From UHGV virus genome UHGV-0138833: 23,871 nt of DNA. One strand, given 5' to 3'. The position numbers and the translations under genes are program-made. Of the stretch, positions 3,459 to 20,586 are shown in pieces. The DNA is from a virus. The notes under the pieces are model-generated. The model ran no database searches, had not been told where the DNA came from, and worked only from the letters and a program-made list of their open reading frames with translations. The first letter of the stretch is position 1; every line of letters starts with the position of its first letter.

Positions 3459-4274
3459 TCACTCTCCTTTGATGCGAATGCCAGTAGCGCGGATTGCATC
3501 GATGACTTCAGAAACTTTGTATGCCATTACCGTTTGGTAATCATCGTGAAAATCTGTTCGATGAAGCATGCTGCTACGTTCCGGGAGCGATATTTCCCGA
3601 GCATCCAGTTCCTTAACGCGCTCCTCCAGTTCGTAGACCCTGCATTGTTCTCTATCATCAATCAGATATAACCCAAGACATTCGCTTTCTACCCAACCGC
3701 CAAAATCATGATCGTAACGCTCACATGAAAACTCACCGTCACCGTCCTTTGTTGGAATGGTGTAACTATCTAATGGGCCACCATATGTCGGCACATTTCC
3801 CAATGTTGGATGCTCAATCCACATGAAAAATGCACGTCCGGTTATTGGGCAAATATCTGGCCGCCATTGGTTACGAACAGCCTTGGTTTCGGATAATTCT
3901 TCAGCGTGTTGTTTTACTTCCTCAAGCTCAACTCTCAGCTTCCCAACCGTAAGAGCAATATCCTCGTTCTTCTGGTCGCGGCGTTTGATGTATTGCTGGT
4001 TTCTTTCCAGCTCATCCAGCAGCGCCAAGACGGTAGCCGGATTGGCTGCAGCGATGAATTCAGCATTGGCCTGCTGTTCCATTTGGAAATCTTCATCGAA
4101 ACCGCTTTCAGGATGCGCTCCTTCAATTCTGCAAATGGGAATATATCCAGCAGCCTCGCGATGAATTAGCGCATCATCACCATCAAATCGGCCCTCTCCA
4201 TATTCGAGCGACCACTCACCACACGTTGCTTTCTCTGCCTTTTCACGCAGTGCCTGATAGTCAATCTTGCTCAC
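3459..4274 (-). CDS. Ea22/Ead-like early protein (271 aa)
   Basis: GTG start with AGGAGG RBS at 7-nt spacing. Coiled-coil N-terminal region and overall resemblance to the lambdoid Ea22 family (recollection, not searched). Confidence 0.5.
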   Translation of the reverse strand: MSKIDYQALREKAEKATCGEWSLEYGEGRFDGDDALIHREAAGYIPICRIEGAHPESGFDEDFQMEQQANAEFIAAANPATVLALLDELERNQQYIKRRDQKNEDIALTVGKLRVELEEVKQHAEELSETKAVRNQWRPDICPITGRAFFMWIEHPTLGNVPTYGGPLDSYTIPTKDGDGEFSCERYDHDFGGWVESECLGLYLIDDREQCRVYELEERVKELDAREISLPERSSMLHRTDFHDDYQTVMAYKVSEVIDAIRATGIRIKGE

Positions 4275-4575
4275 TGGTTGCCTCCTTTGCCGGGATTTCT
4301 AACTTTTGAGTGGTTGTATCAAATTCAAACAACTTAACCACGTCATCAAACAGGACATAATCACCATCAGGATCTTCAGTCATATCTGCGCCACAATCCT
4401 GACCGCACGAGTCGCAACCATCCATATCAAGCTCGTATCGCTTCAGGTTTGCGATATTTGATAAATTCAGCGCCAGTACAGCCAGGTCATAAACCTCTTC
4501 GGCAGTGACATCGCTGTTCAGTCCCATTTCATGGCGATATATGATTTTTTCTACTCGTTGTTTTGTGATCGTCAT
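4261..4575 (-). CDS. Hypothetical acidic phage protein (start ambiguous: ATG 4575 or ATG 4527)
   Basis: Track start 4599 is a TTG. Acidic C-terminal region with a CDSCGQDCG cysteine cluster. Confidence 0.45.
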   Translation of the reverse strand: MTITKQRVEKIIYRHEMGLNSDVTAEEVYDLAVLALNLSNIANLKRYELDMDGCDSCGQDCGADMTEDPDGDYVLFDDVVKLFEFDTTTQKLEIPAKEATSEQD

Positions 4576-4846
4576 TTTTCTCTTCACTCCGATATACAAG
4601 GATTACCACACCCCCTCTGCTGATTGCGCGAGCTGGATCCCCTGGTTCCATGCCGTCAATTCCGAAGGCTTCGGAAAACGCATTCATTGCCTTCTGGCGT
4701 TCATCCTGCTTACGGCGTTTATTCCATTTTTTCAGGAACAACAGCGACAGCCACCGTCCGCTGCAGAACACGATGTAAAAATAACCAAGGAGCGCCAGGC
4801 CGACATTCAGGGCCGTTTCTATGGTTAGTTGTGAGTCAGTTGCCAT
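4529..4846 (-). CDS. Hypothetical small membrane protein (105 aa, one TM helix)
   Basis: Hydrophobic segment LTIETALNVGLALLGYFYIVFCSG then a basic stretch KKWNKRRK. Overlaps the next gene by up to 47 nt, which lowers confidence. Confidence 0.4.
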   Translation of the reverse strand: MATDSQLTIETALNVGLALLGYFYIVFCSGRWLSLLFLKKWNKRRKQDERQKAMNAFSEAFGIDGMEPGDPARAISRGGVVILVYRSEEKNDDHKTTSRKNHISP

Positions 4847-6561: not shown

Positions 6562-7062
6562 CTATTGGTATTGGTTCTTCCGCAGAAGAGCTTCGCGAGA
6601 TAAGGGGCAAACTTGTTGAGATGCGTCATGGTGTTGCTGCTCCTCACTTTTTGGTTGCTCCGGAGGAGTAACCTCACCAGTTAACAGCCACATCGGATCG
6701 CAGCCAAGAATATTTGCCAGTGGGATAAGCATACTGATAGTTGGTTCATACTCTCCGCTCTCCCACTGGATGATAATTTCTTCATCGAGATCGAGCAGCC
6801 TGGCGAGTTCGGCGGTTGTTAAGCCGCAGGCTTCGCGTTGGGTGCGAAGACGGTTGTTGATTGCAGAATTTTTGTTCTGTAAAAGCATTGCTGACGATAG
6901 CTTTCTGGATATGCTATTTGTCATATCCCATGCCAGTCCTGCGCATGACTCTATATCGCTAGAGAGCGTAGCATCAGGTGTTGCTTTTGCTATTAGTGTA
7001 ATGAGGCTGCCGAGGTTTTTCAGTTCTTCGAGACAGTCAAGAGTTGTAGCTTTATTGATCAT
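6562..7062 (-). CDS. XRE-family HTH DNA-binding protein (166 aa), first gene of the leftward operon
   Basis: Cro/C1-type HTH segment LRTQREACGLTTAELARLLDLDEEIIIQWESGEYEPTISMLIPLANILGCDPMWLLTG. GAGG RBS 11 nt upstream of ATG 7062. Confidence 0.6.
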   Translation of the reverse strand: MINKATTLDCLEELKNLGSLITLIAKATPDATLSSDIESCAGLAWDMTNSISRKLSSAMLLQNKNSAINNRLRTQREACGLTTAELARLLDLDEEIIIQWESGEYEPTISMLIPLANILGCDPMWLLTGEVTPPEQPKSEEQQHHDASQQVCPLSREALLRKNQYQ

Positions 7063-7099
7063 GAGATGATACCTCAGTTACGAACTTTGTTTTATGGTA

Positions 7100-7141
7100 A
7101 CTAAGGTATCAAGGTGTGGCAAGTGATTTTTGATACTTTGG
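7100..7141. promoter_or_regulatory. Left operator cluster (OL-like): divergent TTGATAC cores
   Basis: CCTTGATACC on the minus strand (7104-7113) and TTGATACTTTGG on the plus strand (7130-7141), between the repressor 3' end and the leftward operon start. Confidence 0.45.
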
Positions 7142-7165
7142 TTTCTTTTTGTGTTTTGTGTCTGG

Positions 7166-7822
7166 TCAGAAAATATCCCACCTGGCATCAACCACAACAC
7201 CTACTATTTCGCAATCATTGTCCATTTCTATGATTGGATATTGTGGATTAAGGGGCTTTAGAAACGCCTTTCCCATGTCAGAAATATATTTTTTGAATGT
7301 TGCTTCATTGGTCGATTTTTTTCTGGCGATGACGTAACACCCTGAAAAAACTTCTTTATCTGGGTTGACAAGGATCGACATTCCTTCAGGAAATGTTATT
7401 CCTACGGGCGAAGTCATTGAGTCTCCGTGCACTTCCAGCCAGAACCCCCTCTCACCAGCGTATTTTACAGAATGCCTCCAATTATCCTGATCATACATGT
7501 TGTAGTCATCACCAGAAGTTGCGAATAATCCTGCCTGAACCCAGTTAATTACAGGGTAAGAGTGTGCTGTGTCTCTCTGTGGGCAGCTCTTAACATTATT
7601 TTCCCAATGCTTATCTTTTTCATCTCCGTTCTGAAGCCACTGCGGTGAACACCGCAGTGCAGCTGCAACTTTAAAAAGGGTGTCACCGTTGAAACTTTTT
7701 GTAAGGCCTTGCTCGGCTTTACTGATTGCAACTCTGGTGATCCCAGCTTTTTTAGCCAACGCATCTTGTGTTAACCCAGCTTTTTGCCGTGCGTTGATGA
7801 GACGTTCACCTAAAGACTTCAT
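7166..7822 (-). CDS. CI-type prophage repressor: N-terminal HTH plus C-terminal S24 (LexA-like) autopeptidase
   Basis: Start taken at MKSLGERLINARQ (ATG 7822) with GAGAGGAGAAGAAAA RBS. HTH QKAGLTQDALAKKAGITRVAISKAEQG; Ala-Gly candidate cleavage site (VQAGLF); GDSM serine motif and downstream Lys (ARKK). Confidence 0.8.
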   Translation of the reverse strand: MKSLGERLINARQKAGLTQDALAKKAGITRVAISKAEQGLTKSFNGDTLFKVAAALRCSPQWLQNGDEKDKHWENNVKSCPQRDTAHSYPVINWVQAGLFATSGDDYNMYDQDNWRHSVKYAGERGFWLEVHGDSMTSPVGITFPEGMSILVNPDKEVFSGCYVIARKKSTNEATFKKYISDMGKAFLKPLNPQYPIIEMDNDCEIVGVVVDARWDIF

Positions 7823-7842
7823 TTTTCTTCTCCTCTCATGGC

Positions 7843-7920
7843 TGTTGATACTAAAGTAACAGAATTTCTTGATACTTTGGATTCCCGTGGTTAACATCGT
7901 TGGATAACAAAGTATCTGGT
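7843..7920. promoter_or_regulatory. Right operator cluster (OR-like): three TTGATAC-type cores
   Basis: GTTGATACTAAAG (7844-7856), CTTGATACTTTGG (7869-7881) and inverted CCAGATACTTTGT (minus strand, 7907-7919). Lies between the repressor start and the rightward genes. Confidence 0.5.
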
Positions 7921-7933
7921 GTGAGACTAAAGA

Positions 7934-8161
7934 ATGACCCTTTATGAAATATTAAAAATTCAATTTAAAACCAATGCCGCTATTGGTCGCAGGTTCCCAA
8001 AGAAAGGAAGGCCTCGTGGCAGTCAAGGTGTTGGAAAGTGGAAAACGCGAGGTGTTCCGGAGGATGTTGCCATTCTTTGTCATCTGGATCCGAGCATTCC
8101 ATATACACACCCAAGTCTAGCGAATACAGAAGATGACAAGCCCACAGGAGACCAACAATGA
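7934..8161 (+). CDS. Hypothetical small basic protein (75 aa) in the Cro position; no recognisable HTH
   Basis: First rightward ORF. Stop overlaps the next start (ATGA). Contains KKGRPRG, an AT-hook-like motif. Weak RBS, odd composition. Confidence 0.3.
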   Translation: MTLYEILKIQFKTNAAIGRRFPKKGRPRGSQGVGKWKTRGVPEDVAILCHLDPSIPYTHPSLANTEDDKPTGDQQ

Positions 8162-8865
8162 ACACCGCAATTTTTAACGGCAAAGCATCCATGACCAGCG
8201 TTGAGATCGCAGAGCTGGTGGGTAAACGTCATGACAATGTGAAACGCACTATTGAAACATTAGCCAAAGGTGGCGTTGTCCGGTCTCCTCAAATTGAGGT
8301 TTCCGAAAGAATCAATAACTTAGGTTTTAAAGTTCAATATGAGCATTACCTGTTTGAAGGAGAACAAGGTAAGCGCGACAGCATCATTGTCGTCGCACAG
8401 CTCTGTCCTGAATTCACTGCTCGCCTGGTAGATCGCTGGCGCGAACTGGAAGAACAGATCCGTAAGCCAATGAGCGAAATCGAAATGGTTGCCGCGATGG
8501 CTCTTGAAGCCGTTCGCCAACAGAAACGGATCACTCAGGTGGAAGAAAAAGTCAGCCACGTTGCTGAAACAGTCGAGCAAATTAAAAAGGGCACTATTCG
8601 TGAGGGCTATGCCGGATATCGCCAACTGAAAGCAAAAACCGGTTTGTCAGATGATAAATGCCGCAATCTGGTGAACGCCTATCAGATTCCTACAGACACC
8701 CATGAGTTCATGACGCCGGACGGATTGTTGTCACGTCGCGCAATTGTTGCTGTGGAACCGTTTATGGCTGCTTTTTATCGGGTTATGGAGGAAGCAGAAC
8801 CGCGAGGGACTCGCTGGTATCACCCGAAAATGGGGTTATTTCAGGTTATTGGTTGGCAGCGGTGA
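8158..8865 (+). CDS. Rha-family phage regulatory protein / antirepressor-like (235 aa)
   Basis: Strong AGGAGA RBS. N-terminal SVEIAELVGKRHDNVKRTIETL pattern typical of Rha-type regulators (recollection of family signature). Confidence 0.55.
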   Translation: MNTAIFNGKASMTSVEIAELVGKRHDNVKRTIETLAKGGVVRSPQIEVSERINNLGFKVQYEHYLFEGEQGKRDSIIVVAQLCPEFTARLVDRWRELEEQIRKPMSEIEMVAAMALEAVRQQKRITQVEEKVSHVAETVEQIKKGTIREGYAGYRQLKAKTGLSDDKCRNLVNAYQIPTDTHEFMTPDGLLSRRAIVAVEPFMAAFYRVMEEAEPRGTRWYHPKMGLFQVIGWQR

Positions 8866-8889
8866 AAAAAAGCCGGGAGTAACCCGGCT
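8864..8889 (-). terminator. Hairpin with a U-tract only in the minus orientation (antisense-blocking terminator candidate)
   Basis: AAAAAAA then AGCCGGG-AGTAA-CCCGGCT. On the minus strand this reads hairpin followed by TTTTTTT. No leftward gene ends here. Confidence 0.4.
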
Positions 8890-9087
8890 CACTCAACATC
8901 AATAACGGGGAGCTGTTTCGCATAAAACGGCTCCGAAACATCCAAGAACAGTTCTAAAGATATCAGCAGCTATATGATCATTTCAAGACCAAATATTGAT
9001 TCTGCAATTTCGGGACGTTACACTGTCTCTGCACCTTATAAAGCGGGTGCCGGGGGTCGCAGCCCGGAATTGTCAACGGCGATATAT

Positions 9088-9108
9088 GACGCGCCAGCGT
9101 CTTTTTTA
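9088..9108 (+). terminator. Short intrinsic terminator candidate in the leader of the second Rha gene (tR1-like position)
   Basis: Stem GACGC / GCGTC, loop GCCA, followed by TTTTTTA. Confidence 0.35.
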
Positions 9109-9273
9109 TCGTCCGCGCTCACGCACGCCAGAATTATGGTGGGCTGGGCAGGGGAGCCGAAAGGCTCGCCGGTCTCCGTTGACGCCGGTACTGCGAACCC
9201 TGTTCAGTCTGCCACCAGTGAGTTTCGCAGCTCCGGTGGTGGAAGTTTTCCACAGTCAACGGAGGCTGCCATC

Positions 9274-9825
9274 ATGGCTACGATCCCAACCCTCACTCAA
9301 CCTGAAATTGCCATCGTTGATGGTCAGGCTGTTACTTCATCCCTGGCTGTTGCCAACTTCTTCTCCAAGCGTCATGACGATGTACTGAAAAAGATCCGCA
9401 CGCTTGAATGCTCCGCATCATTCACTGCCCGCAATTTTTCGGTGAGTGATTACACCGATTGCACAGGCCGCAAACTACCTTGCTATCAAATCACCCGTGA
9501 TGGCTTCGCGTTCCTTGCTATGGGCTTTACTGGCAAACGTGCAGCCCGGTTCAAAGAGGCATACATCAACGCCTTTAACCTGATGGAGAAGAGTTTATCA
9601 GGTGCCGATGCGTCTGATATGTCAGCTGTCGCACGAAACGCCAGAGGCGTATACCTGCATTTGCGTGAAATCCATCAAATCTGGACAAGCCAGCTTTATC
9701 CAATGCTTAAGGCCGTTGAATCTCCGCTGGCTAGCAAACTGTACGACCGTGTTGGTGATGCTGTTTTTGGCGCTGCACTTGTTGGTTCCAGGCTGAATGG
9801 TTCTGACAAGGAGGTTCGCCCATGA
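9274..9825 (+). CDS. Rha-family phage regulatory protein (about 183 aa)
   Basis: Start taken at MATIPTL (ATG 9274) with GGAGG RBS at 9261-9265. Segment FSKRHDDVLKKIRTL...ARNFSVSDY...YQITRDGFAFLAMGFTGKRAARFKEAYINAFNLME matches the Rha pattern. Confidence 0.65.
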   Translation: MATIPTLTQPEIAIVDGQAVTSSLAVANFFSKRHDDVLKKIRTLECSASFTARNFSVSDYTDCTGRKLPCYQITRDGFAFLAMGFTGKRAARFKEAYINAFNLMEKSLSGADASDMSAVARNARGVYLHLREIHQIWTSQLYPMLKAVESPLASKLYDRVGDAVFGAALVGSRLNGSDKEVRP

Positions 9826-19089: not shown

Positions 19090-19165
19090 GGCCCTTTAGC
19101 TCAGTGGTGAGAGCGAGCGACTCATAATCGCCAGGTCGCTGGTTCAAATCCAGCAAGGGCCACCA
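19090..19165 (+). tRNA. tRNA with anticodon CAU (Ile2-like, ileX/ileZ type; Met not excluded)
   Basis: Manual cloverleaf: acceptor GGCCCTT/AAGGGCC, D-arm GCTC..GAGC, anticodon loop CTCATAA, T-arm GCTGG-TTCAAAT-CCAGC, encoded CCA. Resembles E. coli ileX as recalled. Confidence 0.8.
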
Positions 19166-19172
19166 TCACATA

Positions 19173-19249
19173 CCGCCATTAGCTCATCAGGAAAGAGCGC
19201 CAGCCTTCGAAGCTGGCTGCGCGGGGTTCAAGTCCCCGATGGCGGTCCA
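19173..19249 (+). tRNA. tRNA-Arg (anticodon UCG)
   Basis: Manual cloverleaf: acceptor CCGCCAT/ATGGCGG, anticodon stem CCAGC/GCTGG with loop CTTCGAA, T-arm CGGGG-TTCAAGT-CCCCG, encoded CCA. Confidence 0.75.
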
Positions 19250-19262
19250 TTATCTGCATCAT

Positions 19263-19339
19263 GCGTTGTTAGCTCAGCCGGACAGAGCAATTGCCTTCTA
19301 AGCAATCGGTCACTGGTTCGAATCCAGTACAGCGCGCCA
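19263..19339 (+). tRNA. tRNA-Arg (anticodon UCU)
   Basis: Manual cloverleaf: acceptor GCGTTGT/ACAGCGC (one G-U pair), anticodon stem ATTGC/GCAAT with loop CTTCTAA, T-arm ACTGG-TTCGAAT-CCAGT, G73, encoded CCA. Confidence 0.8.
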
Positions 19340-19803: not shown

Positions 19804-20195
19804 ATACATATCTGGATTATCACCGGTTACGGTAAAAAGTGATTGCTTACTGTTTTTGTGAATGGCATTGCAGCAGCCGGATAATGTCAGTGCTGGCTGA
19901 CGGTGTGCTGGTGGCGGGTGTGGTGGTTGCTGCTTTCCCGTTGCTGAAAAAGAAAACGCCAGACTGTTAGCCGGGTATCAGTTAGCGGGAGAAATTTTTA
20001 AATACTTCACAATTCAGGCGGTTGACTGTTGTCTGGTTTGCGGGGAGTTTGTTAAAAGAAACTGGCATGGTGAATCCCCCTGTGCGGAGGGGCAATCAGC
20101 GAGTAGGTATATGGGATAATCGCGGATTCAGGTGCTGGTACTGAATTCACCGGGAGGCACCCGGCACCATGCAATGGCACATAGCGCCACTCTCC

Positions 20196-20231
20196 AGCCC
20201 CTCTCCGGAGGGGCTGTTTATATTGATTTTG
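20196..20231 (+). terminator. Rho-independent terminator ending a GC-rich structured segment
   Basis: AGCCCCTC-TCCG-GAGGGGCT (8-bp stem) followed by GTTTATATTGATTTTG. A sibling hairpin CCCCT-GTGCGG-AGGGG lies at 20077-20092. Confidence 0.65.
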
Positions 20232-20250: not shown

Positions 20251-20586
20251 TTATGGACTTTGTTGTTTTAGCCCATAAGGACATATTTGCAGAGTGCAAC
20301 GGTTATTAAAGCATTCATTCAATACGTTATCTGTATTTGTAGGGCATTCCTGGCTGTTTTTGATTAAATTCCAGAATGTTTTATTGAATGGTACTACGTT
20401 GTAAATGGTTACAGGCAGCACTTTGTTATTGAGCATGATGCCTGTGTGAGTCAGTGTAAATATACTTTCAGGAGGTAAGAAAGCATCCGATTGATACCAG
20501 ATTATTAATTTTATTTTACTCCATATGACTGAAAAAGATATTCCGCATGATGGCTGGATAACTGTATCAATCACAATCCACTTCAT
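20251..20586 (-). CDS. Hypothetical protein (111 aa), very AT-rich, convergent with the preceding plus-strand unit
   Basis: Good AAGGAAA RBS about 5 nt upstream of ATG 20586. Cys-containing; no recognisable domain. Confidence 0.5.

Follow-up and report, generated by a model that had tools for sequence, protein, structure and literature searches.

The virus genome UHGV-0138833, a stretch of 23,871 nucleotides (nt) called the window in the following, is a lambdoid prophage, and an identical copy of the region dealt with here is present in Escherichia coli SF-088. This immunity region contains a leftward gene encoding a CI-type repressor (cI), a divergent rightward open reading frame (ORF) of 75 amino acids (aa), separated from cI by 111 bp, and operator-like repeats and promoters on both sides of cI (Table 1). 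An earlier note on this DNA had described an SOS-type repressor between OL/OR-like clusters and, in place of a recognisable Cro, a non-canonical Cro substitute or an antirepressor circuit. We followed up this description by computational analysis of the repressor, the repeats and the 75-aa ORF.

Table 1. Features of the immunity region and of the adjoining genes in UHGV-0138833
Feature	Position	Strand	Description
First gene of the PL operon	6562-7062	minus	166 aa; unassigned N-terminal domain and C-terminal HTH_3 domain (residues 72-126); homologue of phiP27 L10; phrog_4739
Putative OL1	7066-7083		ATGATACCTCAGTTACGA; operator-like 18-mer downstream of the PL start, over the ribosome-binding site of the leftward gene
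PL-like promoter	7094-7122	minus	TTGCCA-17-TACCAT; consensus promoter scan
Putative OL2	7095-7112	minus	TTGATACCTTAGTTACCA; covers PL spacer and -10; GATAC and TAGTTAC invariant in the OL alignment
Putative OL3	7130-7147		TTGATACTTTGGTTTCTT; immediately upstream of the PL -35; AGTATC invariant in the OL alignment
CI-type repressor	7166-7822	minus	218 aa; HTH_3 and Peptidase_S24; Ala97-Gly98, Ser135, Lys178
Putative OR3	7845-7862		TTGATACTAAAGTAACAG; closest to cI; GA.AC.AAAGTA.CA invariant in 9 loci
Candidate PRM extended -10	7853-7861	minus	TGTTACTTT; inside OR3; read from the sequence
PR	7869-7897	plus	TTGATA-17-TAACAT; consensus promoter scan
Putative OR2	7869-7886		TTGATACTTTGGATTCCC; left half is the PR -35; TTGATACTTTGG invariant in 9/9 loci
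Putative OR1	7901-7918	minus	CAGATACTTTGTTATCCA; over the predicted PR start; GATA and flanking positions invariant
Probable cro	7934-8161	plus	75 aa; diverged helix-turn-helix protein of P22_Cro type; turn lengthened by 5 inserted residues (~22-26)
Rha-family gene	8158-8865	plus	235 aa; Phage_pRha (PF09669), 40.2 bits, cutoff 29.9; phrog_63
IsrK promoter-like site	8996-9024	plus	TTGATT-17-TACACT; read from the sequence
IsrK-like small RNA	9031-9107	plus	Rfam RF01394, 58.7 bits, gathering score 50; with terminator
C4-type antisense RNA element	9132-9219	plus	Rfam RF01695, 78.8 bits, gathering score 45; full length
Second Rha-domain gene (AnrP-like)	9274-9825	plus	Phage_pRha, 104 bits for this part alone; start inferred

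The repressor and the operator-like repeats

Both parts of the CI-type repressor named in the earlier note, a helix-turn-helix (HTH) and a LexA-like autopeptidase, were matched in Pfam: HTH_3 at residues 10-63 (54 bits, cutoff 23) and Peptidase_S24 (PF00717, 78.8 bits). The start of the gene at 7822 is the same as in phiP27 L11 and in the PGAP annotation. A longer ORF beginning at 7897 was rejected, its start being used neither by phiP27 nor by PGAP. For the N-terminal domain of the repressor, 434 Cro and P22 C2 were obtained as matches with an E-value of 1e-8. An alignment to lambda CI (3bdn; E 8.7e-34) brings the motifs VQAG(L/M)F, G(D/N)SMT and TFKK together. Thereby VQA97-G98LF comes to lie opposite the lambda cleavage site VQA111-G112MF, and Ser135 (GDSMT) and Lys178 (TFKK) opposite the catalytic residues Ser149 and Lys192 of lambda, the lambda numbering having been checked against the lambda sequence. 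By these alignments the repressor is closely related to lambda CI and has a C-terminal domain of the self-cleaving type. Since cleavage site and Ser/Lys dyad align with those of lambda CI, the prediction of a RecA-dependent self-cleavage is well founded, in agreement with the SOS-type repressor proposed earlier.

Five repeats with a TTGATAC core had been reported for the DNA flanking cI. Four exact copies are indeed present (7106-7112 on the minus strand; 7130-7136, 7845-7851 and 7869-7875 on the plus strand), but the fifth site (7907-7919) contains only CAGATAC, at 7912-7918 of the minus strand. The occurrence of four exact copies within about 215 bp of noncoding DNA flanking cI has a Poisson P of 2e-8 with the shuffle expectation (2.99 per window) and of 7e-6 with the 13 copies actually observed in the window. 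The repeats are not 7-mers, but extend to 18-bp pseudo-palindromes of the form TTGATAC-N4-GTWWC.., of which there are six, three on each side of cI, the site at 7066-7083 having been missed before. Each consists of TTGATAC as the strong left half, four A/T-rich central base pairs and GTWWC as the weaker right half, the same strong-half/weak-half asymmetry as in the lambda operators. The dyad symmetry is imperfect (6/9 in OR3, 3-4/9 in four other sites, OR1 left out). OL1, which phiP27, an Stx2a phage, Photorhabdus and Xenorhabdus have as well, forms a 15-nt inverted repeat with 7097-7111 (93% complementary), and OL3 and OR2 share a 19-nt direct repeat (89% identical).

The 18-mers overlap the two promoters found by the consensus scan: OR2 provides the -35 of PR and OR1 lies over its start, OL2 lies over the -10 of PL and OL1 over the early transcript. 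The OR and OL regions were aligned for nine loci from E. coli phages, Raoultella, Yersinia, Phytobacter, Photorhabdus, Pantoea and Xenorhabdus. Invariant columns were found in both operator half-sites, in the -10 of PR (TAnnnT, the T, the A and the final T being invariant across genera and the other hexamer positions varying) and in the -35 (CTTG) and -10 (TAC..T) of PL, and the spacers vary. At the level of sequence this column pattern is a clear phylogenetic footprint. A symmetrised operator matrix derived from the other genera only placed OL3, OL2, OR2 and OR3 at ranks 1 to 4 in the 23.9-kb window. The top single-site scores overlap the maximum of the null, and therefore the case for the operators rests on clustering and conservation. 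Most likely, the six 18-mers are operators of the OL/OR type to which dimers of the repressor would bind; promoter overlap and invariance across genera thus speak for the OL/OR-like operators of the earlier note. The loci of Providencia and Proteus exhibit an altered recognition helix of the repressor together with partly altered half-sites (GAAAC), which would fit a co-evolution of repressor and operator, an anecdotal observation.

Alternatively it might be that the TTGATAC repeats are sites of another factor, such as a host protein or the HTH protein of the leftward gene (6562-7062), or that they are a fortuitous promoter-related sequence. TTGATA also serves as -35 hexamer, the window as a whole has more TTGATAC than expected (13 copies versus about 3 by shuffle), and the leftward gene does encode a HTH_3 domain. 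We nevertheless regard this explanation as exceedingly improbable. The sites are 18-bp dyads with conserved second half-sites, and they are kept in loci where the first PL ORF is, with 63-71 aa, too short for an additional HTH (domains not searched), cI and the gene of the 75-aa protein being present in all cases. Moreover, the HTH part of the 166-aa protein is common to PhiR49_2, a phage with a different cassette. The nine copies of TTGATAC outside the immunity region (3283, 3429, 4316, 11068, 12031, 15207, 15597, 20491 and 20564), by themselves about threefold the number that shuffling predicts for the window, have no recognisable second half-site and were set aside as operators. Two of these, at 20491 (plus) and 20564 (minus), form an inverted pair with a distance of 73 bp.

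The gene at the position of cro

The 75-aa ORF has 31 relatives across the Enterobacterales with 61-95% identity and 24 invariant residues. Because its dN/dS is 0.05-0.1 (synonymous sites being saturated between genera), it is, judged from the sequences, a real gene. A genome scan with the family yielded ten loci in Raoultella, Yersinia, Phytobacter, Photorhabdus, Providencia, Pantoea, Xenorhabdus and Proteus. In all ten the homologue is divergent from a HTH-S24 repressor gene, across 88-115 bp. PHROGs assigns the ORF to a family of unknown function, and in RefSeq it is labelled 'hypothetical protein'.

The AlphaFold model of the protein is a confident all-alpha HTH with helices at residues 3-11, 14-20, 30-39 and 43-51, a predicted local distance difference test (pLDDT) score above 90 across the HTH motif and a 9-residue loop at 21-29. 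Its best fold matches in the PDB are Cro proteins, namely those of N15, Xfaso1 and P22. The model hence contradicts the earlier view that the protein lacks a HTH. It has the all-alpha HTH fold of P22 and N15 Cro, and the short turn of 3-4 residues found in a canonical HTH is not present.

A Pfam scan of each member gave no match at the gathering score, neither for the ORF nor for any of the 32 family members, and matches of the family to Nup358 and Peripla_BP_3 were dismissed as chance. A search with the family profile against 1.84 billion representatives detected relatives without the insertion at E-values of 1e-11 to 5e-4. These have the usual short turn (e.g. FNV-TRQSVSHWK), and in the three loci looked at they are likewise divergent from repressors with HTH_3 and S24 domains. 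P22_Cro is the best Pfam match in seven of the ten insertion-less relatives, five of these seven having YdaS_toxin as second match; two relatives gave no match and one a weak match to a CI-repressor HTH. The transitive link is formed by the relative P0052, which is reached by the family profile at E 8.7e-5 and itself matches PF14549 with 31.2 bits (cutoff 30.2), being the only insertion-less relative above the P22_Cro gathering cutoff. Both in the alignment and by hhalign, P22 Cro and the insertion-less relatives have a 5-residue gap opposite P-K-K-G-R of the window protein, and the recognition-helix motif AV(G/S)(K/Q)WK, followed by (V/I)PE, lines up.

Fold, transitive profile homology and gene position indicate with good probability that the ORF encodes a diverged Cro of the P22_Cro/YdaS-type lineage. 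The insertion of five residues in the turn explains why profile libraries miss this Cro and why its motif looked like an AT-hook. The earlier statement that there is no recognisable Cro is correct as far as direct Pfam and PDB searches are concerned, which came out empty, but fold and transitive profiles do reach P22_Cro. A Cro-like gene was thus found by profile search in the 75-aa ORF itself, though it is not a fully conventional one. The typing as cro is already in the literature: the phiP27 orthologue was typed cro12, and the degenerate cro12 primers encode MTLYEI and GKQSEV, which are both ends of phiP27 L12 (Smith et al. 2012). The present analysis maps six putative operators and two promoters, together with a third, tentative promoter.

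The earlier note had further described the 75-aa protein as basic and AT-hook-like. The protein is basic (isoelectric point 9.5, and 10.2 for residues 1-59) and does contain KKGRPRG. This motif, however, corresponds to the residues inserted into the turn of the HTH and follows the family pattern P-[KR]-[KR]-G-x-x-R. Residues P22, G25 and R28 of the loop are invariant across the family, whereas the GRP core occurs in only two of the 32 aligned members (the window and P0001). The commonest form is GKP, and GKA, GSA, GRA, GTP, GNS, GKS and GKV were found as well. On account of the unconserved core and the confidently folded context, the AT-hook reading was rejected.

These results also bear on the possibility that the phage has no Cro, the 75-aa protein being a basic AT-hook-like or non-HTH factor and the decision being taken by an antirepressor-type circuit of the Rha genes. 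The compact HTH model with its Cro-like fold matches, the replacement of GRP in most family members and the P22_Cro matches of the insertion-less relatives all argue against it, even though the ORF lacks a direct Pfam match and KKGRPRG resembles an AT-hook core. There are indeed two Rha-domain genes downstream, with the PHROGs label 'anti-repressor' for their families, and the IsrK/C4 module at 9031-9219 is like the one controlling the antirepressor-like AnrP in Gifsy-1. Yet the gene following cro is not the same in all genera, in contrast to the constant pair of cI and cro, and a search for LexA boxes found none near either Rha gene. Furthermore, the first Rha gene lies downstream of PR and the scan found no separate promoter for it, so that it should be silent in the lysogen. 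A switch without Cro is therefore very unlikely.

An extended turn in a HTH of the lambda-repressor type is known from POU-specific domains, and such domains were among the weaker fold matches of the 75-aa model. It might be that the basic insertion marks an undescribed Cro subfamily whose extended turn makes an additional contact to the DNA, a possibility which we put forward with considerable doubt. In that case the loop could, for example, reach the four A/T-rich central base pairs of the 18-bp operators or the minor groove beside them, in the manner of an arm or of the extended HTH in POU-specific domains, and Cro would read the operators it shares with CI in a different way.

Comparison with known immunity regions and proposed switch

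Closest to the window is the Stx2e phage phiP27, with 95.8% nucleotide identity over 6676-8133 (L10-L12), L11 being the repressor and L12 the 75-aa ORF. Unlike the window, phiP27 carries an additional leftward ORF, L13 (223 aa; positions 4000-4671 of phiP27, minus), between L12 and the Rha gene. In the literature searched, which did not include the phiP27 genome paper, no description of the phiP27 operators or of the HTH insertion was found. In the window the stop codon of cro overlaps the start of the Rha gene as ATGA (8158-8161), in line with the translational coupling put forward in the earlier note. This coupling is absent in phiP27 due to the insertion of L13. In PhiR49_2, where the cro allele is a different one, the same overlap leads into the Rha/Roi gene, and it also occurs in an Stx2a phage, after a homologous cro.

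PhiR49_2 shares both flanks with the window (99.9% left, 89% right), but the segment 6850-8144, comprising OL, cI, OR and cro, is swapped as one unit. At the position of cro the PhiR49_2 cassette has a canonical Cro of the YdaS/P22 type. The cassette border at 6850 lies within the first gene of the PL operon. The N-terminal ~70 residues of the 166-aa protein (5' ~210 nt, 6850-7062) are hence immunity-specific, whereas its C-terminal HTH_3 part is the one shared with PhiR49_2 at 99.9%.

That the 75-aa protein has the fold of a Cro and yet serves another role, e.g. as a CII-like activator or as a YdaS-type toxin/antitoxin-like factor, is unlikely. It is encoded by the first PR gene, divergent from cI in every locus, and is exchanged together with operators and cI as one cassette. 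In favour of another role, the extended turn might change the function, and phages of this type have no recognisable homologue of N, cII or cIII (Smith et al. 2012). YdaS_toxin is the second Pfam match of insertion-less relatives and matches in BFVD are named YdaS, but P22_Cro is the better Pfam match. PDB entry 8co2, named 'Putative antirepressor protein Cro; YdaS', is found at rank 54 among the fold matches of the 75-aa model. YdaS of prophage CP-933P has itself been described as Cro-like, which counts against a separate role too.

With lambda the region has in common the divergent cI and cro genes, two sets of three dyad operators which flank cI and overlap PR and PL, a centre-to-centre spacing of 24 bp for one adjacent pair (here OR2-OR3) and the homology of the CI C-terminal domain with its Ala-Gly, Ser and Lys residues. 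In contrast to lambda, the operators have 18 bp with the half-site TTGATAC, OR1 and OR2 are 32 bp apart, and OL follows directly past cI, 715 bp from OR3 and without rex genes. Also, the N-terminal domain of CI is nearer to 434 Cro and P22 C2, and Cro is all-alpha, whereas lambda Cro is alpha+beta. The Cro proteins of P22, N15 and Xfaso1 (PF14549), which belong to the all-alpha branch, resemble the protein encoded in the window in size, gene position and the motifs AV(S/G)(Q/K)WK and (V/I)PE. They differ from it by the lack of the 5-residue turn insertion, and it stays below every Pfam threshold.

Some points weigh against a lambda-type switch with a Cro at this position. Direct Pfam and PDB sequence searches with the 75-aa ORF gave no meaningful match, the Foldseek E-values of its model exceed 0.1, and hhalign of the family to the single P22 Cro sequence reached a probability of only 2.8%, with the gap placed as expected. 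A turn of nine residues is unusual for a HTH and could in principle impair canonical reading of DNA. On the operator side, the cross-genus matrix scores OR1 (rank 8) and OL1 (outside the top 20) poorly. The literature searched holds no binding, cleavage or transcript data for this immunity type. Finally, the promoter scan detected no sigma-70 -35/-10 pair that could serve cI, and PRM is uncertain for this reason. We tentatively assign PRM to the extended -10 TGTTACTTT in OR3, which is invariant in the OR alignment; operator function alone could explain this invariance. On balance, the region quite probably constitutes a complete immunity module of the lambda type and belongs to the immunity group of phiP27.

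With lambda, P22 and 434 as models, the features, their conservation, the homologies and the predicted fold suggest the following mode of action, in which DNA binding by both proteins, the order in which the sites are filled, PRM and cleavage are predictions. In the lysogen, CI dimers on OR1/OR2 and OL1/OL2 would block PR and PL, keeping both early operons off, and OR3 would overlap the likely cI promoter. Because the C-terminal domain of CI is lambda-like, cooperative binding and looping between OL and OR over ~715-740 bp are plausible. Upon DNA damage, the repressor would lose its activity through cleavage at Ala97-Gly98, stimulated by RecA. PR would then express Cro and, via the ATGA coupling, the first Rha protein, and Cro would bind to the same operators and keep the expression of cI down.

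Adjoining genes, distribution and significance

Between the stop codon of cI and OL3 (7148-7166) no terminator-like hairpin was found, neither in the window nor in phiP27. The loci of seven other genera, excluding two Proteus loci, have a GC-rich hairpin with a T run between cI and OL3. Without such a hairpin, transcripts of cI might run into the PL operon unless they are blocked by repressor at OL. In other genera PL is followed by ORFs of 63-71 aa, some of which resemble, by eye, the N-terminal domain of the 166-aa protein.

To the right of the first Rha gene, the IsrK and C4 matches fall inside the 5' third of a 283-aa ORF (8974-9825) annotated in RefSeq as 'Rha family'. The Pfam Phage_ASH match of this ORF covers the same stretch as the two RNA elements, and the Rha domain begins past Met101. 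Since the Phage_ASH match coincides with IsrK and C4, the 5' part of the ORF is probably a translated RNA leader, and the real Rha protein would start near 9274. A similar arrangement of IsrK/C4-like RNAs directly upstream of a Rha-domain antirepressor-like gene is known from Gifsy-1 (isrK-orf45-anrP) and P1 immI (c4-icd-ant). By this analogy, IsrK/C4 and the second Rha gene may form a second, RNA-based control layer adjoining the switch. The module, 0.9 kb downstream, would act in addition to Cro. It gives the antirepressor circuit considered in the earlier note some footing, though as a supplement to Cro and not in its stead.

Two minus-strand features lie between the two Rha genes, a promoter-like site with an upstream TG (8957-8986, TTGAAA-18-TATCTT) and a terminator-like hairpin, GAGCCGGGTTACTCCCGGCTT, followed by seven T (8870-8890). 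Together they could yield a leftward RNA of ~85 nt, reminiscent of lambda oop. On the side of the late region, three tRNA genes and a match to the small RNA STnc100 (132 bits) were detected at 19090-19336 and 20036-20225 (plus strand).

Among 5,426 complete E. coli genomes, 197 carry the region, in a single copy each, and several Stx1a and Stx2a phages match it with ~84% identity. These findings leave the general picture of lambdoid switches unchanged. With this family, a Cro whose HTH turn is expanded joins a lineage that is already used as a model for the divergence of fold and specificity. As the immunity type occurs in Stx1a-, Stx2a- and Stx2e-converting phages, its repressor and operators would help to set the timing of induction in the Shiga-toxin prophages of this group.

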